From the NCBI GenBank assembly GCA_000004985.1, contig GG738920.1: DNA of 64,000 bases, one strand, 5' to 3'. The translations under genes and the position numbers were made by a program. Position 1 is the first letter of the stretch. Each line of letters opens with the position of its first letter. Below the pieces are notes generated by a model, which had not been told where the DNA came from, made no database searches, and saw nothing but the letters and a program-made list of their open reading frames with translations. The stretch comes from Naegleria gruberi (Eukaryota). Below, one piece after another: positions 17,560-49,028 of this stretch.

Positions 17560-18243
17560 ATGGTTAATTTAAAAATTTTGGATTATATTTGTTGTTGTTT
17601 TGTTAGTCATGCTGATGAGAGGAGTGAGGTACCTTTCAGCCAATTGTCAAATCCTTCTCCCAATACAGAGAGATCCTCTGATTTGAATGATACAACTGAT
17701 GACTTTTGTGAGTCTTCCGAAATGATTATTGGTCTGTCAGCAGAACAATATGAAGTACTGTTGAACCAGGTACAACATGAAATTGATTTTGATGATGAGA
17801 AAATGAATCACATTACAGCATATCTGACGGAGAAGAATGTCTGTATTGATACAGAACAAGCATTGGCTTTTATTGGAACAATACACTTCTCAAATACTAG
17901 AATTGTATTCATTGAACGTTTGCTTCCTTTCATTATTGACTTGAAAGTGGGCAAGAAGAAAATTATCGAAACAATTGGATTTTATAACGACAAGATTAAA
18001 ATCAAGAAATTGATTAGTGAACATTTAAAGAAGAGAAAGATTGGAGATAATTTCATGAAGCCACCACCAGTCTCACCATCTCAAGCCAGAATGAATGCAC
18101 TCGGTGGATATAAGGGAACTACAAGTGACTATCTGGTTGGAGGAACAGAATTGGAATCATTTGGAAGTAAACAAATCAAACAATCTTCATCCACCAGTCG
18201 AAGTGCATCCCCATCTCCAAACTATCAAGCCAACAATAAATAA
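17560..18243 (+). CDS. hypothetical protein
   Basis: 227-aa ORF with a real ATG and a TAA stop. The N-terminal half is acidic and the C-terminus is Ser-rich. No domain is recognised. Confidence 0.4.
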   Translation: MVNLKILDYICCCFVSHADERSEVPFSQLSNPSPNTERSSDLNDTTDDFCESSEMIIGLSAEQYEVLLNQVQHEIDFDDEKMNHITAYLTEKNVCIDTEQALAFIGTIHFSNTRIVFIERLLPFIIDLKVGKKKIIETIGFYNDKIKIKKLISEHLKKRKIGDNFMKPPPVSPSQARMNALGGYKGTTSDYLVGGTELESFGSKQIKQSSSTSRSASPSPNYQANNK

Positions 18244-19744: not shown

Positions 19745-21493
19745 ATGAACCAACGCGAGTATGAAGGCGATAAACAACCGTACAGCTGTATGCGGTGCAG
19801 GAAACATCATCGAAAGGTAGGTTGAAAGGGATTTTGTGTGATCTTAGGAACAAACGTAATATTATTATTTGTTTATTTGCATGTGGATGTGCTTTGAAAA
19901 TTTTTAAATATCATGTGGCGGTTATTTGTTGCATGTAATATAATAATAATTGATAATGATATTATAGTGTGATAGGAATCCTAAGGGATGTTCTAATTGT
20001 GGAAATTCTGGAGTAAAGTGTATTGTAGGTTTTTGTTTTTTGGAAGGCTAGTAATTAATCACACATTTGAAATAGTATGCCGATCAACTTCAAAACTCAC
20101 AACATCAAGAAAAGAAGGATGAACAATCACAACAGCAGAATACTCAGCAACAACAACAAACAATGACACCACAGACTTTGGTAGATGTCTACTTTTCGAT
20201 ACTTTGTGGAACACATCCTTTAATTGAGAAGGAAAAGTTTAAATATTTTGTAAATAATTGCTTGAACCAGTATAATGATATCAAAGCTAACGAATGGATT
20301 TCTTCGGTTGGTGAACTGAGATGTATTCACTGTTTCTACATGTCTAACATGTCTTTGGCGCTACAGTTAACTTCAGATATTAATCACACAAAAACTATTG
20401 GAATAACAGAGGCTCTTATTTCATCATTGGAAAAGGAACAATCTCACGAGTTTTATTGGGTTGCTTCTTGTTTTACATTGGTCATGTACTTTATTGGAGA
20501 GGGAGACTTTACAAAGGTCAATCACTACAACTCTAAAGTTTTTGAATATTTGAAAGGAGGTTATCAACACAAATTCACTTTTCACTTGTTGAGATATCAA
20601 TCATTTGTTAATTCTGGATTTGTTCATCATATTACAACCATGCAAAGTTTAATCAAGGATATGTGTGAACAATTCTTTTATAGTACTGGGAAAAGGCTTG
20701 AGGATTGTGTACTTCCAGGTACTATTGAACACATGAGAAGTAATTCAATAACAATGGAAAATAACCAAATGTACAGACAGGTCCATAACTTTGTCTCTGA
20801 TACTGTTGTAAATCTTGAAGGTGAAATGGTTAAACAATTAATAGATTGCCATTCAACTACATTTTTCAAACATCAAAGAATAGTAACATCAATGATACGG
20901 TTAGGATGTTCTCTCATGTTATTCAAACAGTCAGATTACTTCCTCAATGATACATCAATTGAGGAAACAGCCCTAATGATAACATTACTAACTGAAGATG
21001 AACTCTTCCCGTAAGTAGTAGTAATATTTTTACAATATATTAATTAACAATGATTTTTTACAGTTTCTGCATGTGCTATACAATATCTCCTATTGTTGAG
21101 ACATGTATCTATCACAAACAGTTGGTTGAAAATTGTATTGAACGCGGTACCAAACCAATGACCTCAACAATCATGACCTCCTCTGGAAATACTGTGACTG
21201 TCGACTATTTATCAATCCTTAAGAAGGATTTGAAAGCACTGATATCACTTGCCAAGAGATTTAAACGAGTAACACTCCTCTACCAAAACCTTATTGAAGA
21301 AATGACTCAAACCATTATGAGAAATACTTCACGAAGTGCAAGTAGTGATACCCGTTCTACCACCAGCTCAACCACAAACCGAACACAAATCGAGGCCTTT
21401 GCTGATGACACTATGAGAGAAGTATCGTCATTCAACGATTCTGCTGTCAAGATGGCTGAATCAGTTGACAATTTCTTTTCTTTTCTGTTTTAA
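19745..21493 (+). CDS. Zn2Cys6 (GAL4-type binuclear cluster) transcription factor, 4 exons, about 497 aa (Z1)
   Basis: Exon 1 is 19745..19816 (MNQREYEGDKQPYSCMRCRKHHRK). Intron 1 is GTAGGT...TTATAG at 19817..19967. Exon 2 is 19968..20024 (CDRNPKGCSNCGNSGVKCI), which completes C-x2-C-x6-C-x6-C-x2-C-x6-C. Intron 2 is GTAGGT...AAATAG at 20025..20075. Exon 3 is 20076..21010 and runs in frame into tool ORF 20163..21014. Intron 3 is GTAAGT...TTACAG at 21011..21063. Exon 4 is 21064..21493, which is tool ORF 21050.., and ends in TAA. All phases are consistent. Confidence 0.6.
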
Positions 21494-21580
21494 TTATTAA
21501 ACTATTAATAAATAGTTTAATTTCTATTCGATGGACTATTGCAACATATACCGCGGACATGAATAATTATTTTAAAAAAA

Positions 21581-22870
21581 ATGAAAACAACACTCATCCA
21601 CAACTGCAACACTCAACCTTCCCTTGAGGAACTGATTGAATTCTCTCCGGTTGCCTGTCTTGATTGTAGAACCAACCATAGAAAATGTGACAGGAAGAAA
21701 CCAACATGTGCTGCATGTCAAATAAGAGGCTTCGATTGCACATACTCAAAAACTATGAAAAGAAAGCTCAAGAAACAAATCATCCACAACCAACTGGAAC
21801 AAGATTATAACATGATTGATTTTTATTTTAATTTGGCAAGTTATGGTCTTCCGATGGTTGGACGAGATGAGCTGAAAAGTTTTTTGACGTTGCTAGTTGA
21901 AAATGGTGGTGAAATTCCTAATAATGAGGATAAACAAGTACTAGAAATGGCTGCTCTTTTCTATTCAATTAAAGCCATTTGTGAATGCTTCACTGGAACA
22001 ATGGAAGATGCAGAGAAGGCAGCCACCAAATCAAAAAACTATCTGTCTCATGTATTTGATAGACATTGGAGTGTACTGGTTGTTGCCTGCTATTATTACT
22101 TGTGTTGGTTTGATTTTATGGTTGGAAAAGTGGAATCATCCCAATTCTATAGACAAATCTTAAAGTTTGCAAAGGAAAAGTTTGAGAAATCAACAAGACA
22201 ATTGAGTAATTTTGAGAGGAATGCCTACGAATGTATTTGTCATGTGGACGAATTCATGTTCAACGAAGAGGGAGAAGTCAGAGTGATGAATTTCGAATTA
22301 TTCATCCAATCTATTCCAAGAATGTACATTTTCGACAAGAGTAGTCTTCCTAATGGATGGAATTACTATATGAAAAATCCACACCTTATCGATTCCACAA
22401 ATTGTTTCGAAGTTTGGACCATGTTGGAGATGATTTTACATGAATCAAGGGAGAATGATCTCGAATTGATTCCAAACTTTGCTGAACTTATTAACTTGTT
22501 TTACAATATAACAGAGAATGGCACACGATTGGGCATACTATCAAAGGCCTCTAATGCATCTAGCTCACTATTGATAGAGCATGCAATGGAGAAGAGTGCA
22601 TCAGAAATAGCTTTCGCAACAACAAGTATCCACTTTAAAACCCTTCCAATAGAAATCATGATACATGTTTCAATTGCTACCAATTACCATCTCGAGAAGG
22701 TGAAGAGTGGTGTTCTCTTTCCTAAGAGAGGAGGGATAAGCTACTTGGATCTGCTATCTAAGGAGCTTCAGGCCTACAATTATTTTAAGCAAAAATTTTT
22801 GATTACTTCTCGTCATTTCTCAACCCTATTTTCACAAGTTGAACAGGTGGCAGGATTATTGAATGTTTAG
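21581..22870 (+). CDS. Zn2Cys6 (GAL4-type) transcription factor, single exon, 429 aa (Z2)
   Basis: Real ATG at 21581. ACLDCRTNHRKCDRKKPTCAACQIRGFDC gives C-x2-C-x6-C-x6-C-x2-C-x6-C. A basic stretch (KRKLKKQ) follows the cluster. The region after the zinc finger resembles the corresponding part of Z1 (IDFYFNLASYGLP... vs VDVYFSILCGTHP...). Confidence 0.65.
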   Translation: MKTTLIHNCNTQPSLEELIEFSPVACLDCRTNHRKCDRKKPTCAACQIRGFDCTYSKTMKRKLKKQIIHNQLEQDYNMIDFYFNLASYGLPMVGRDELKSFLTLLVENGGEIPNNEDKQVLEMAALFYSIKAICECFTGTMEDAEKAATKSKNYLSHVFDRHWSVLVVACYYYLCWFDFMVGKVESSQFYRQILKFAKEKFEKSTRQLSNFERNAYECICHVDEFMFNEEGEVRVMNFELFIQSIPRMYIFDKSSLPNGWNYYMKNPHLIDSTNCFEVWTMLEMILHESRENDLELIPNFAELINLFYNITENGTRLGILSKASNASSSLLIEHAMEKSASEIAFATTSIHFKTLPIEIMIHVSIATNYHLEKVKSGVLFPKRGGISYLDLLSKELQAYNYFKQKFLITSRHFSTLFSQVEQVAGLLNV

Positions 22871-23608: not shown

Positions 23609-26600
23609 ATGAAAATTCCTTCAGGAATAATTCTCCTCCTTCTACTCGGTTTTGCAGCAGCATGGTTGTTAGCAGAACATAAAGTAGAGTGCACTATCGA
23701 TCACAAAATAGTGGCAGGTGGTCTAGTCGATCCAATCACTGGTATCGATGCATCTGGTTTCAAATTCAAAAATCCTGCTTCTGCATGTGTAAATCCTAAA
23801 ACTGGTGATGTATTCTTGACTGATGCTGATACCATCAACAAACCAAGTTTAGGTTTTAATAGAATATTCAGGGTAAATAGACAAACTAACATCATTACTA
23901 CCTATGCTGGTAATGGTTACTCTTCTGTAACAAGGTAAGTTAATGAATGAGCATCATGTGATGCATACATGCATGAATGTTAATTTAACATGCTTAATCA
24001 TAATCAACACATCCAAACGTGAATTTATATAGTGGAGATGGTGAATTAGCAATTGATGCTGGCATGACTCCATCAGTTTGCACTGTGGACATGGCTGGTG
24101 ATTTGTATTTTTATGATATATCCAGTTCTGCCATTAGGGTTGTCAATGGAACAACTGGAAAGATTTCCACCTTTGCATCCGTTTCTAAACCATTTTCTCT
24201 TGCAAGTGATGATAATTTCATTTACTACTCTGCAACTTTTTCTGTTGGTAAATTCAATAAGGTTACTAAGGTTAAGACTGTTTATGATAGCAGTGTTGGT
24301 ACATCATATGTTGTGTTGGGTCTGGATGGATCATTATATTACAGTGCAACCAGTGAGAAGACCATTAAGAAGGTTGACAAACAAGGTGCAATTTCGATCA
24401 TTGCTGGTCAAACCAGTGTTGGTTGTGGAAACGGCAATAAGGATGTGTGCGGTGATGGTGGATTGGCTTCCAGTGCTCTATTTTATGTAAGTATTCACAG
24501 AGGACTAGATCCATATTTAACAACATGTATTTCCTTATTAACAATTAACAGCAACCAAGTAGTCTTCATGTACAAGAAAATGGAAACCTCGTCATTGCAG
24601 ACCAATACAGAGTAAGAATGATTTCTCCAAATGGAACCGTGTCAACTCTTGCTGGTACTGGCACTTTCAATTCTTACTTTGGTGGTGCAAACGGTGATGG
24701 CAGCTCGGCAATCACTGCTGTTCTTAAAGATGTTGGTGTTATATTTGGATACAACAATACTGTTTATATTCAAGACGCGTAAGTATTCATATTCAACTTG
24801 GTTCGTCTAATCATTTCAATAGAAGAAATCTTAGATACAGAAAGGTTGAGAATAGCATTATCAATCATGCATTTGGAACTTGTGACAAGGGAGTTGCTTT
24901 TGGAGAAGGTAACAGATTGATTAATACCAATTTGAATAGTGGTTTAGCTTCTCTTGCATTCGACTCTCAAGATAACATGTATTTGGCTTGGCAAAATATT
25001 GTTTACAAGGTCTACAATGGAATTGTTAAAAGAATTGCTGGAACTGAAATTGGTGATTATGGTACTAATGGTAATGCATTGAATGCATTACTTTCTGTTG
25101 GAAAGATTATTGTGAATTCCAACAATGATGTTATTTTCCCAGCAGTAAGTTGATACTTAATTCAATTTAACCAATTTTTGATATAGGTCAACAAAGTTAA
25201 AAAGATTGAAACCTCAACTGGTTTAGTCAGAGAATTCAATATTACTGGTCTCAATAGTCCTAAAGCAATTTGCTTGGATGCAAATGACAATTTGATCATT
25301 ATGGACACCAGTAACTGTGTCATCAAATATTTCGATGTAACAACTCAACAAGTTTCGCAACTTTCCAAGACAAATGCTGGATGCGATCCTGGAGCAAGTG
25401 GTTTTTGTAAGTTTGCACATTTTCATTGTTGATTTAATCTATATAATAGTTGTCAATTCAACATTATTTAGCTCACCTTCTGATTGTGCCGTTGATAAGA
25501 AGAATGGGGATATTTACATTTCTGAGAATAACAAGATTAGAGTTATTAGAAAATCAGATAGTAAGGTGTATACCATTGCAGGTAATGGAAACTATTGTTT
25601 GAAAACAACTTACAATACGAACAAATGTGGAGATGGAGGCTTGGCAACAAGTGCTGCTATTTCAAGTAATGGTTTGGCCCTCAATTCTGCAACTTCTGAA
25701 TTGTTCTTTTCTGGTAAGTATTTAAAATATTCTATTTCGACTAATTTCAAGATAGATCTTGCTTGGGATGGTGCTAATAATAATTATTATTCAACTATTA
25801 GAAAGGTAAATTTAACATCTGGTGTCATTTCAACTGTGGCAGGAACAGGTTCTTCACCACCAAAAACTGGTACTTACATTTATGGAGAATGGTCAGATCC
25901 ATTGGCTACTCCAATTTTAGTTTCCACAGTTTCTGTTTCAAATGGTGGAAAACTCTATTTCCCAGACGGTTCCGATCAAGGGTATATCAGAACTATTAAC
26001 TCCAATAATAGAATAGTTTCAATTACAGGTCACTATTATTCGGATTCCATTTATTACAATGGTGAAAACTTGACAGCTACCGAAAGTTATCTATGTAACC
26101 CAACAAGTATTGCCAAACATAAGAATGGCGACTTGTTCTTTGGTTTGACATGTAAAACAATTGTTCAGCAAGGTGCAGTTTGGACAACTTTTTCCAGAAT
26201 TGTAAAGTTGGATTCGAATACTGGAAGAATTAATACTATAATTGGTAATTTTAAGGAAACAACTTCTCCAGATGGATTGAGTGGATTACAAACAAGTATT
26301 AGTCCATATAGAGATGCTTCTAGCTATTTCCCATTGGGAGTTGTTGTTACTGATGCAGGTGAAGTAATTTACTCAGATTCTCAATCAAATATTATTAGAA
26401 AAGTAAGTTTCTTATAAGAATTTGTGAAATTAAGCAAATATTTAGTTGAATTTAAATGGAGTGATTGAAACTATTGTTGGAACCAATACCAGTTGTCCAA
26501 ATTCCACATACACTTGTGGAGACAATGGTGATGCCAAATTAGCAAGTAAGTTTCTTCCTAAATCTTTCCAATATTAAAAACTAATCATTCCTCACGTATT

Positions 26601-29600
26601 GGAAATATATAGATTTGAAACAACCAACTGGTCTCTTCTTGACAGAAAGTGGTGTTTTATATATTGCTGACTCTGGTAATCATAGAATTAGAAAAGTTGA
26701 AAATGGAACAATCTCAACAGTGATTGGTTCTGGATATTCTTGTTCATCTGCTGGAGCTGCTTCTTGTGATAGCACTGATCCTCTTTTGGTCAAGTTGTTG
26801 GTAAGTTATTCGACACTAGTTCGTATGATAATTTTGGTTAATAGACTCCTGCTGCTGTTTATATCACTAAATCAGGAGATGTCTATGTTGCTGATACAGG
26901 AGTAAGTTATTTGATTGATATATTTCAAAGTAATCCTATCAAATTAACTATTTAGAATAACAAAGTAAGAAAGTTGAGTAATGGAATTTTGAGCACTGTT
27001 GTTGGCACCTCGTTGGATCTTCCAACTGGTTTATTCGTCGATGAGAGCAACAATGATGTTTACATTTCTGATCGTGTAAGTTTTTCAATCTTCCTTTCAA
27101 AAATGTTTACATTTTCAATAATCTTTCAAATTATTTTAATAGACTCGTACTGTTAGAAAAGTTTCTAAAGGATTTTTATCAATCTATGCTGGTACGCTTA
27201 ACAATGCAGTATATTCAATCTCTGGAAATGTTTCTTTCTGCTATCCAACTTCAATTCTTCAAACTAATGATGGAATTCTTGTTGCTGACACTGAAAGTGG
27301 CTTGATCAGATCTGTCAAACTTTCCTGTCCAACTGGATACTATGGATTGAACTGTGAATATTACAACTGTTTTGGAATTAGCAGCTTAAACTCAAATACC
27401 TGCAATGGATTTGGTAATTGTTCAGCACCTGACGTTTGTAGTTGTGACAGCAGTCATGAAGGAAGTCAATGTGAAATTGGAAAGTGTTTTGGAATTTCAA
27501 AAAATAACTCAATGGTTTGCACTGGACATGGGTTATGTCTTTCACTTGATACTTGTTCGTGTAATGGTGATTATTACGGTGAAAAATGTAATTTACCTTA
27601 TTGTTTCTCAATCAGATCAAACGAAACTTCTGTTTGTTCTGGACAAGGCAACTGTGTTGAAAAGGATCAATGCTCATGTAGAAATAATTATTTGGGAGCA
27701 ATGTGTGAAAATGCACCATGTTTTGGAGTTTCTTACAACGCATCTAATGTTTGTTCTGGAAATGGAGAATGTGTTTCTCTCAATAACTGTACTTGCGATG
27801 AAGGTTATTATGGAGATTTATGTAATTTACCAATTTGTTTCTCTATCAAATCCAATGACTCATCAGTTTGTTCTGGACAAGGTGATTGTATTGGAAAGGA
27901 TCAATGCTCATGTAGAAATAACTATTTAGGAGCAATGTGTGAAAATGCACCATGTTTTGGAATTGTTTACAATGCAACAAATGTTTGCAGTGGACATGGA
28001 TTGTGTGTTTCAGGAAGTTGTCAATGTTCAGATAATTATTTTGGATCTAACTGTAGTGTCACCACTTGTTTTGGAACGGCCAGTAATGACAGCTCAGTAT
28101 GTAGTGGTAATGGTATTTGTTCTTCTTTTGATGAATGCAAATGCTCAACTGGATACACTGGAGTTAATTGCAATGTTTCAACTTGTTATGGATTACCTGC
28201 CACTAATGCAAGTGTATGTAGCGGACATGGATTGTGTACTTCTCCGAACCAATGTTCTTGTAATCAAGGTTGGAATGGAACTTATTGTAATGTTACTTCC
28301 TGTTTTGGTATTGTTTCTACAAGTGTTTCCAATGTTTGTAATGGACATGGTTCATGTATAGCTCCAAATGAATGTTCATGCAAACAAGGATATCTTGGTT
28401 CTTCATGTAATGTTACTTTCTGTTATGGAGTTTCTTCCAATGAGTCCAATGTTTGTTCTGGTCACGGAACTTGTGGAGATTTAAATTCTTGTTCCTGCTC
28501 TTCCGATTGGTACGGATCCAAGTGTAACATTACCACTTGTTTCGGTATTAAGGGAGACCAAAATACTGTCTGCAGTGGCCATGGCTCATGTCCATCAACC
28601 AATCAATGTAACTGTCAAGAGAATTATTATGGCACATCATGTTCTGTTCGTTGTGACTCTAATACCTGCAATGGACATGGTAACTGCTCATCAACAGGTC
28701 AGTGTCAATGTTTCTCAGATGTAGAACATGGTTTCTGGACCTCTTCTAATTGTTCGAAATGTGATTCGAATAGGTATGGTGAAAATTGTTGGGTCACTAT
28801 TGGAAATAGTTCAATGGTTACTCCAGATGGAATTGGTCTTTTATTGCAACTTGTTAATCCTAATGCAAATATTAAGAATTTGCAAGTCGATTGTAATATT
28901 TTACTTTCTTCTGAGACTATTAGAAAGTTGGATTCACCAATTTGTAGATGGACTAATTTATCAACAAGTGAATTGACCATTCAAATGGGTCTTGAAAATA
29001 GTATTCAATTAGGAGATTCTTTATATGTCAATACTAATTATTTCAACACAGCCAACTTGAAACCTTCTTACATTCCAATAACTGTCATGAAAAATTCGAA
29101 TCCAACTGTTTTACCAGAAGCTGTCATTTCCACAACTTCCAAATCTTTCAGTAATTGTGATTCAATTGTTATTCAAGGATCTGAAAGTAGAGACAAGAAT
29201 TATAGAGATTTGACTTTCGAATGGCGTTTCGTCAACTCTCCTCTTTCTCCTTCTGCCTTATCTCTCATTACGCTAACCAAACCAACACTTATTTTGGCAG
29301 ATAGTCAACCATCTGGAAATTATATTGTTGAACTCGTTGTCATTTCCAAATTTGGAGCAAGAAGTTTGCCAGTTTCTTATTCATTCAAGAAACTTTCTGC
29401 CAGTATGCCACAAATCAATGCTGAAAGCAATAGTATGGATGTATTTGTCGATAGACTTCCAATAATTGTCAAGAAATATGTTTCGTACAAGTCATGCTTG
29501 GGAGAAATTTTAAAGTCGAATGAATATACAGTGAATTGGACTCAAACCAGTGGACCAACCAATGCCAAATTCGAAACTTTACCTAACGGAGACTTGGCAA

Positions 29601-31942
29601 TTTATTCATTCCAATCTCAATTGTCCAATACTTTCACATTTGTTGCAACTTTGAATTATTCAATGGAAATTGCAAGCACAAAGGTAACAATCAATACTCA
29701 TGAACCTAATTTTGCAGTTTTGGTTTATCAAACTGATTTGAATTCAACTCATGTGACTGTCAATGTTGAAAGTGATCCAGTTGAAAGTTTGGCTCAATAC
29801 AAGGATAATATTCAGTTTACTTGGAATTGTAAGAATGTGGACGAAACTAATTGTGATTCTTCCATTTTGAATACTCTTGCTTATCACGGCAATGTTAAAT
29901 CGACCAAATTCATGTTGGCTCGTAAATCTTCATTGTCAATTCGTCTCGGATTGGATGTTACCTTATCAGGAAATAATCACAGCAATGAAATGGTTGTCAC
30001 TTTCCCTAAGGACGAAACTGTTCCAGTTGTTGAATTGGTTTCAGTTTCTCCAGCTGGTTCTCAACTCACCACTGAAGACATTTTAACCATTCAATTATTA
30101 GTTCGTGTCAGTGGTCAAATTGAAAATATCGATTCTTTAATTACAAGAAATTGGAATCTCAATGGTCAACCAATTAGTAACGATTTGGTTTTATCCCCAT
30201 CTCCATCTAAATCCAATTACATTTCTCTAGATTTATCCAAACTCAGTGCTGGTTCATCAAACACTTTGCTATTCAACGTTTCAAGTGTTTCGTCTAAGTT
30301 ATTCTCAACATTTACCTATTCCTTCTCACTTGCTCCAAATCCATTGCCATGTTCATGTTCTGTTAGTCCATCAACTGGTTTCGCTCTTGAAACTCTTTTC
30401 ACAATCAGTTGTCCTAATTGTTTGACTTCCAACACTGCTCTTCAAGTTTTATTCACAGATGTCAAGACTGGAGTCAGAGTTCCACTCATGGATGCAACTG
30501 TGTCTGAGTTGACCACTCAATTACCATATACAGGTGATGAACAACTTCCATTACATTTTGTTGTTAGAAATACCAAGACAGGAGCCAAGACTGAAACCTC
30601 AGTTTTACAATCGGCTAAAGTTCCATCCGCTATCTCATTGTCAGAAGTCAAGACAAAGAAGATGGCTTGGAATGCTTTTTATAGATCTCTCTATGCTAAT
30701 GATCCAAGAAAGGTTGTTTTCAATTATATTTCAACTGTTGTCAAAGAAATGACTAGAAGAAACTCTGTCACCAGAAGAAACTTGAAGGTAACAAACTGTT
30801 TAAATGGTGGAGTGTATAATTCATTCACCAAGATGTGTGCTTGTAAGAGTGGATTCAAGAAGATTGACTGTAGCATGACTCTTTCTGATTGGAATGCAAT
30901 TGTTTTGGATAATTACGAAACTGCCAAATCAGTCATTGAAGAATTGAATTCCAGAAATAGTTTAGAAGCCCCACAAGAATCCAAGATTGCCAGCCAAATT
31001 TCATCTCTCTATCACTTGCTGGAAACTGTCGACGAGAATAGTCCAGAATTGCTCGATCAAGTTCTTTCCATTTTCAACAATACCATTCAAGATGCCACCA
31101 AATTCTCTTACATTACAATTTCGAATTCATTGGCAAGTACAATGTCTGAAATTTTGGGATTACTTTACAAGAGTCAACTCTATAATGCTGGTAATGTGAG
31201 TGTTGAATATTTTGCAAAGATTAGAGAATTGCTCAACTCGGTTGCATCTATCAAGTACAGAAATCAATTGATTGGAAGTTCTATTGATTTTGATGCTGAT
31301 ATGTTCAAGTTGACTGGAACTAAACTCTATCCTATGGATTTATCTGGAAAGAATCTTGATACAATGATTCAACTTCCAACATTAATGACCAAATATTTGA
31401 AGAATGGAGACATGAGAAAGTCAATTAGTCCAAGAATTTTCAAGAATTCAATTATTCAATCCAAACAAACTTCTGAAATTATCAATAATCAAACAGTTGT
31501 AACATACGAAACCACTCCAGGTTACTCTCTTTCCTTAGAATTCATTAATCAAAATGTTGACATTCAAGAAAAAGTTGTTAATTATTACTTTAACCTTACT
31601 AAGACAAATATTTCTGCATACAGCAATATTAAGAACTTGGTCTCTGAAGTTGTTTGTGAAAGTGATCAACCATGTGAATTACAAACCTTAGAAACAAACT
31701 TTTATGCATGTAAATGTGCCCTTCCATCCCATGTAACAGTTAGAGAGAGAACTACGTTCACTATTGTGCCAATAGTTCCACAAAATTCTATTCCAACTCC
31801 TCAAAAATCAATTGTTCCAAAAGTTTCTCCAAAAGTTTCCAAGATTGCCACTGTTTCTGATGCTTTGCAATATTCTGGAATTAATGGATGTATTGTTGGT
31901 TTGTTAATTGTTTTATGGACCTCTGTTGCTGTCTTCTTTTAA
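23609..31942 (+). CDS. giant secreted/surface protein: signal peptide + about 10 NHL blades + about 11 EGF-like repeats + about 1100-aa Ser/Thr/Asn-rich glycosylated region + C-terminal hydrophobic anchor (12 exons, about 2570 aa)
   Basis: Exons, +/-3 nt: 23609..23934, 24033..24486, 24552..24778, 24823..25144, 25187..25406, 25450..25713, 25756..26402, 26446..26545, 26613..26800, 26845..26901, 26956..27075, 27143..31942. Introns are 42-98 nt, all GTAAGT...YAG, and all phases close. The signal peptide is MKIPSGIILLLLLGFAAAWLLA. NHL blades include CGDGGLASSA..., ADSGNHRIRKVENGTISTV and DNNVRKLSNGILSTVVG. EGF-like repeats of about 32 aa follow the pattern CFG..(10)..C.G.G.C....C.C..(8)..C. The protein ends GCIVGLLIVLWTSVAVFF, a TM or GPI signal. 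Near 23879 the ORF-track frame was used where it disagreed with the printed text by 2 nt. Confidence 0.65.
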
Positions 31943-46155: not shown

Positions 46156-49028
46156 TTAAAGCTCATTGTTTTCCTGTGGGTTGACTTCGTAAACTTCAGA
46201 TTGATTGGATATATTATTTGGTTGGGAAATAATGGGATATTGTACTGGGTTGTCATTATTTGTTACAGTTGAGGAGAGGGGAGGAAATGATGATTCACTC
46301 TCTGTCATTTCAACTGAAGGAGTAATTGGATCTTGCATATTTGTTGATGAATTATCAGTTCGAGTATTCAAGTAATAGCTTGGTATGGAAAAGTAGTCCT
46401 TTGGACAACGTTGGTTGAATTCTTCCTCAGCAACAATCTTTCTCACATTTTCCTTCAAATCGAATACATCAATCACACCATTCAATTGTTCACAAACTAC
46501 AATTGCTTCCAATCCCCATTTAAGGTATTGTCTAATTCTGTGGATGGTATGGTTTGGAACTTCTGAAAGTCCTAGAACAGATAAATCATCTACAGAAGAA
46601 CCAAATAAAGATTCTTGAGAGCCATACAATCCAAAAACTCCAGTCATTAGGGCAGTTGATTGTAAAGTTTCCAATTCTTCGAGCTGAATTTCTACAGCTT
46701 TAACAATGCACGGAAGGACCACTGGACCACTGAAATAGAAAGCATCATTTCTTGTTGCTTCAATGACAGAATAAGATGCTAATATTGAGGTTGGTGTGTT
46801 AATGTTTGGAAGTGTAGAATAATTTTCACTCGTTTTTGAGGAACACATATCATCTCCAACAATGGATAACTTTGATACAATAATACTGATAGTGTCAGCA
46901 ATCATCTGGGAGGTCAAGAGAGAAATATTAGCAGAGAGTGGAGGGATAAAATTTTTGAGTACTTGATTTCCATAATTGAGGAACTCTTTGGAAAGTTTCA
47001 TTCTTTCTAAACATTCATCGAAGGAGATTCCTTTCTGAGTGTTAGAGCAAGATATACTTGCACTTGGATGGGCACGAACCGATTTGCAAGGTATGGTCAG
47101 GTAGTTCTCAACCCAGAATGAAGTTTCATTTTCAATTTCTCTTATTCTTTGTTCATCTTCTTCATGAATGTGAAGGTAAGAGTATTCATAAAGAAGCTCA
47201 TCTGCTTGTGGGGATGGAGGTAATAATCTCTCGTTATTCTTCTTTTGTTTCAAAGTTTTGATTAAAAATTCGGTAGTTGTTGCCGATTCTTTTAAATTTT
47301 GAAGTTTTGAGAGAGTATTAAATTGAGAAACTATTGTAGATGAGTGTAATTCATTCAAGCAGACGAGAAATTCTTGAACTTGGGATGATGTTAACTTGTT
47401 CTTAATCTTTTTCGAGAAGAGTATAACTTGAACATGAGAGAGTAATAGATGAAGTAAATGATCTTCAATATCCAAGTCTTTGATAGTATTCCTATATTCT
47501 TTCCATCCATGTTGTGAGTGAATACTACTAGTGGTTGTATCATGTTTGGCTACTCTTGATTCCAAATACGATGATACCTTAGTTATGTACTTGGATGCTT
47601 CCTCTGGATGTCTATTAGCAACTAGAAGTGAAATGTAGGAAAAACATATTAATACTCGTATTAACGTTTCGTGATCGTGGGATTTAACATGCTTTTTAGC
47701 TTTTAAATGTAAATAGAAAGGTTCCAGATATGACTTTGCCTTATTGAGGAGAAATTCCGAGACTTGAGGGAGGCCTACTCTATCAAATGCTAAAGACTGG
47801 ATACATAGAAAGAGTGAATAGTCAACATGATCGATATCTGAGAGTTTTTGCTCTTTGGATCTTATGGCAATGTGATGAAAATTTGAAGAGTCGTGTCCTA
47901 TAAGATGAGCAAGTTCTGGGGTTGGAGTTGATAAAGAAAGAGGTGTCAAATCTATAGAGAAATCAAGGGATGATGGCAAATTTGTTGAAATGTGAAGAGA
48001 GCTAGGTTTTTTGTGATGATAGTAATGTTGATCGTGATGATTTTTGTGCTGTTCAGTAATATTATTATGATTAGGTTCATGAGTTTCCTCACAAAGACGG
48101 TACAGAATGGAGATGATGTATGTTTTCAAAATATTTTCACTTGTTGGTTCGTCATCCACTGTTCCTAATTCGTTTGTCATAAAGTGGAAAGATACTAATG
48201 AATCATACAAGCATAAATCTCTAACGAGCTCCAATTTCCGTTTTGCAATTGATGAAGGTTGAATTTGTGGTAGAACTTGCTCCACAAACATACTCAAAAT
48301 ATTCTCATAGGTTTCATATTTTGGATCATCAAATGGTGACTTGTCTATTTGTTGTAATAATTCAATCCTTTTGTGTGCAGGTTGATGTTCATCCCGATGT
48401 GGATGTAAAGTTGGAACACCAGAAACAATCACTGGCTCAGCTCCATCTTCCTCCTCACTTTTAGATATTTCCTCATCATGTACATGTTTTACACCATGTT
48501 TTTCCTTCTTGTTCTCCTTTTTGTGACTTTTTTCAGTTTTTTCCACAATGCTATCTCCTTCGTTTGTTGCAGTTGAAGGAGCGTTAGAGAGTGGCACCAA
48601 AGTCTTGGTTGGTGATTTTGCTTTTCTATTACGTTTAGCCTGTGGATAAACACAAACTTTGTCTTTCCTACGACAATTAGAACAAATTGGCAATGCTTTA
48701 TCACACTAGTAGCAGATGTGGTAAATAAAGAAATTAATCCATCCAATAATTAATTTTACAAAGATGATCAAAAAAACAATGATAAAAAGCATAGTAAACA
48801 AACCTTTCTATGTCCCTTTCTACATTCTCTACAGGCAATTGGAGAATAGGTTTGAAGTACTTCCACAAGAGGTTGATCGGAGGAGGTTGAATTTTGAAGA
48901 TCAACATTGTCTGTTGTTGCCCCATGATCAAATAATTCTTCTTCATCACTTTCATCTTCTAAATCTTCATCACTATTCACAATGACTTTGTTTTTCGTCG
49001 ATGATGATGTATTTCCTGTTGCAAACAT
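46156..49028 (-). CDS. Zn2Cys6 (GAL4-type) transcription factor, 2 exons, about 924 aa (Z3)
   Basis: Exon 1 is 48804..49028 (ATG at 49026-49028; ...YSPIACRECRKGHRK). A GTTTGT...CTACTAG intron lies at about 48706..48803. Exon 2 is 46156..48705 (CDKALPICSNCRRKDKVCVYPQ...), which completes C-x2-C-x6-C-x6-C-x2-C-x6-C. The tool ORF 46156..48693 begins on TTG inside exon 2. Confidence 0.65.

Follow-up and report, generated by a model that had tools for sequence, protein, structure and literature searches.

Results

We analyzed a stretch of 64,000 nucleotides of Naegleria gruberi DNA (contig GG738920.1 of assembly GCA_000004985.1), referred to here as the window, and focused on two neighboring genes, Z1 (19745..21493) and Z2 (21581..22870). 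Both lie on the plus strand in a head-to-tail arrangement, with a gap of 87 nt (21494..21580) between them. Each encodes a complete two-domain protein, in which an N-terminal GAL4-type Zn2Cys6 cluster is followed by a short basic or glutamine-rich linker and an all-alpha domain of approximately 370 residues. A run of A residues directly precedes the ATG of both genes and that of a third zinc-cluster gene in the window. The A-runs and the complete two-domain coding capacity of each gene would favor two separate transcription units. The gap contains a CCGCGG sequence at 21551, a candidate binding site.

The cysteines of both clusters follow the spacing C-x2-C-x6-C-x5-12-C-x2-C-x6-8-C, and all three genes exceeded the gathering threshold of 21 bits for the Pfam model PF00172 (Zn_clus, GAL4-type), with 33.2 bits for Z1, 37.5 bits for Z2, and 31.3 bits for the third gene. 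These results confirm a preliminary description of this DNA, which had read a GAL4-type cluster in both genes of the pair and had noted that it is split in Z1 and intact in Z2. The Z1 score was obtained once the two halves were joined, while Z2 is a single open reading frame (ORF). All 30 distinct heterolobosean clusters that we compared carry a histidine at the position of GAL4 Lys18, within the pattern C-x2-C-R-x2-H-[KR]-[KR]-C-D. Lys18 is a base-contacting residue of GAL4, and the invariant histidine may alter DNA specificity. By inference, these clusters would each bind two Zn(II) ions and contact DNA at CGG-type half-sites.

The spliced model of Z1 encodes 497 amino acids and is 100% identical to the public protein XP_002669970.1 (NAEGRDRAFT_81978). 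Exon 1 (19745..19816), placed by this match, is followed by intron 1 (19817..19967) and by exon 2 (19968..20024), for which the spliced model and the halves of the Zn_clus match are the evidence. Intron 2 spans 20025..20075, and an alternative end of exon 2 at 20028 breaks the frame. Exon 3 (20076..21010) matched the family hidden Markov model (HMM) with 214 bits, and its predicted local distance difference test (pLDDT) values in the AlphaFold2 model are mostly above 90. The spliced model, the AlphaFold2 model, and the family HMM all support exon 4 (21064..21493). Intron 3 (21011..21063) is placed by the spliced model, and many of the fragments reported by ORF callers for subfamily members begin or end at this site, which suggests that the intron is conserved in the subfamily.

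For Z2, the AlphaFold2 model had a pLDDT of 89.9 and a predicted template modeling score of 0.82, with pLDDT above 90 across the zinc cluster. In the public model, XP_002669971.1, the protein begins only at Met59 (nt 21755), so that the cluster is missing. The longer ORF, beginning at the ATG at 21581, is supported by an in-frame stop 18 nt upstream, by a cluster conserved at the equivalent position of N. lovaniensis P0002 and N. gruberi P0066, by the AlphaFold confidence, and by independent gene calls on an environmental contig that begin at the same ATG. A near-identical environmental contig shows an apparent frameshifting 7-nt insertion at about codon 326 of Z2 (window position 22557). The annotation error is a useful side result, and errors of the same kind lie behind most fungal proteins described as having only the middle homology domain (MHD), according to the CeGAL study (PMC10141177).

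In the predicted structures, the all-alpha domain C-terminal to the cluster has an MHD fold of the kind found in yeast Cep3 (CBF3 subunit B of S. cerevisiae and K. lactis; PDB 6f07, 6gyp, 2veq, and 6p7v). Cep3 is the sole Zn2C6 protein with an experimental structure of this domain (PMC10141177).

When the cluster was left out, HHalign comparison of Z1 with Z2 gave a probability of 99.8% (E=1.7e-29) over 335 columns, so the similarity extends well outside the zinc cluster. The similar stretch just after the cluster, which the preliminary description had noticed, is real; in the C-terminal domain shared across the family, it is the first of the conserved motifs (consensus D.Y........P.I.R.ELE). 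Z1 and Z2 are homologous over the whole gene, adjacent, and in the same orientation, but they are not mutually closest paralogues. They fall in separate clades with 100% support each and share 14% identity, and their closer paralogues lie elsewhere. These closer relatives have the same architecture, with 28-37% identity over the whole domain and a clade support of 100%. At the N. lovaniensis locus, the ±10 kb around the family gene contain no other member, and a conserved pair arrangement is therefore not supported; this 21-kb locus also showed no synteny to the window.

The third Zn2Cys6 gene, which the preliminary description had counted, was located on the minus strand (46156..49028). Its exon 1 (49028-48804) and exon 2 (48705-46156) are separated by a 98-nt intron (48803-48706), and the product of 924 amino acids matched the family HMM over the cluster and in two weak, collinear C-terminal regions. 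A search of the six-frame translation of the window with the family HMM detected no members beyond these three genes. The genes neighboring the pair, at 17560-18243, 24019-26417, and 27302-31942 (all on the plus strand), are unrelated to it. Neighboring products comprise a DUF4476 protein, NHL/teneurin-like repeat proteins that form one group, and a 1546-aa cysteine-rich ORF that, judged by eye, has the look of EGF-like repeats.

For estimates of clustering, we took the N. gruberi genome as 41 Mb with about 15,700 genes, together with a published count of 71 members. With these values, the Poisson probability of three members in 64 kb is approximately 2e-4, and that of four members on one 219-kb scaffold (the fourth lying outside the window) is approximately 6e-4. 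The count of 71 zinc-cluster proteins is that recorded by Scazzocchio 2014 (PMC5611559). On another N. gruberi scaffold (305,921 bp), two divergent members, EFC39109 (P0014) and EFC39112 (P0078), are three accessions apart, an indication that paralogues that are not sisters form near-tandem pairs more than once in this family. From the probabilities for window and scaffold and from this second pair, we conclude that family members tend to lie in clusters, a pattern consistent with expansion through local duplication.

Family members were found in N. gruberi, N. fowleri, N. lovaniensis, Willaertia magna, and Acrasis kona. Given this spread over Naegleria, Willaertia, and Acrasis, an early heterolobosean probably already carried the family, and a recent acquisition is unlikely. 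In a word-index protein search, a profile built from 40 sequences recovered 3 proteins, all of them already known, and so gave no census of paralogues. The abundance of Zn2Cys6 genes had initially been called informative for lineage assignment, given that such regulators are typically regarded as fungal; a fungal lineage is not supported. The host is the heterolobosean N. gruberi, and the G+C content of the window (34%) and its short GT..AG introns fit a heterolobosean, non-fungal origin. The expansion of zinc-cluster proteins in this species has been known since 2014, and Z1 and Z2 are ordinary annotated members of it; the function of these proteins was explicitly left open (Scazzocchio 2014, PMC5611559). 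The literature that we searched contained no report on these genes or on an MHD-like domain in Naegleria.

Discussion

We consider it likely, with good confidence, that Z1 and Z2 are best explained jointly as deep paralogues that combine a Zn2Cys6 cluster with a domain of Cep3/MHD fold and that act as sequence-specific DNA-binding regulators of transcription. Such regulation is their most likely function: half-sites that are short and GC-rich would be the target of the zinc cluster, and dimerization, regulatory control, or both would fall to the helical domain, as in fungal Zn2C6-MHD factors. Our results show the domain content, the family membership, and the predicted fold, from which zinc and DNA binding, dimerization, and a part in transcription are inferred.

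Several observations weigh against parts of this reading. None of 40 family members matched Fungal_trans or other MHD models at E≤1, so that of the two Pfam domains for which a search had been proposed, Zn_clus was found and Fungal_trans was not. Run against the sequences of the PDB, a profile of the helical domain alone did not recover Cep3 at E≤10; its best match there was a TPR pair of IFIT1 (E=0.0017). The link to the fungal MHD is made only through similarity of predicted structures, at about 9% identity; Cep3 was included in the training data of AlphaFold, and all-alpha solenoid-like folds can converge. The Cep3-like fold could be convergent or generic. The domain would then be a TPR-like alpha-solenoid that shares no ancestry with the fungal MHD, and Naegleria would have borrowed no more than the zinc-cluster module, fusing it to a helical domain of its own. 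The missing sequence-level link to Fungal_trans or Cep3 and the IFIT1 match speak for such convergence, and the predicted Cep3-type fold C-terminal to the cluster speaks for the MHD; we regard convergence as possible but doubtful.

As to the pair itself, the family tree is a distance tree of representatives of 50%-identity clusters with an incomplete set of N. gruberi paralogues. About 0.3 adjacent pairs are expected by chance genome-wide, with roughly a one-in-four chance of at least one, and adjacency by itself is therefore no proof that the pair arose by tandem duplication long ago. The preliminary description had proposed a local gene duplication. Paralogy stood, given the HHalign result, but a recent duplicate pair did not, since two fully supported clades and 14% identity exclude a recent origin. 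Such a recent tandem origin, with either gene copied directly from its neighbor and the pair then diverging in place, is quite improbable, even though the close head-to-tail placement, the equal domain order, the common motif after the cluster, and the full-length profile homology would all suit it. Judged from the sequences, Z1 and Z2 are instead deep paralogues from long-separated subfamilies and not mutual duplicates. The two lie next to each other either as what remains of an ancient local duplication in a cluster-prone family or through chance or secondary juxtaposition.

A Cep3/MHD fold suggests that the fungal-type Zn2C6-MHD regulator is present as a whole, beyond the zinc motif alone, in a lineage that ranks among the eukaryotes most distant from fungi. 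We lean, by a modest degree, toward the view that Heterolobosea (Naegleria, Willaertia, and Acrasis) possess, in expanded form, the full architecture of Zn2Cys6 cluster and Cep3-type MHD that is considered a hallmark of fungal transcription factors. There it would have diverged past sequence recognition and acquired hallmarks of its own, the invariant histidine and an intron within the cluster. This conserved intron and the histidine are simple markers for tracing the family. The fold also bears on whether Zn2Cys6 proteins are ancient or were transferred horizontally, a published open question (Shelest 2017, PMC5415576). Should the homology of the helical domains be genuine, the whole gene, beyond its zinc-cluster motif, would either go back to an early eukaryotic ancestor or have passed in a single, very early transfer between fungi and a heterolobosean ancestor. 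The label of a fungal-specific MHD would then be overturned, and there would be a handle on the roles of the 71 or more Naegleria zinc-cluster proteins.

Among the known systems closest to these genes are Cep3 and the fungal Zn2C6-MHD, or CeGAL, proteins (Gal4, Pdr1/Pdr3, and Leu3, among others; PF00172 with PF04082). The CeGAL family is described as restricted to fungi and has an MHD recognizable in sequence (PF04082 or PF11951), whereas Z1 and Z2 belong to N. gruberi, have relatives in other Heterolobosea, and lack a sequence-recognizable MHD. We would describe the pair as Zn2Cys6 regulators that work like fungal Zn2C6-MHD factors; because the sequence definition of the MHD was tested and did not apply, formal membership of the CeGAL family is not established.
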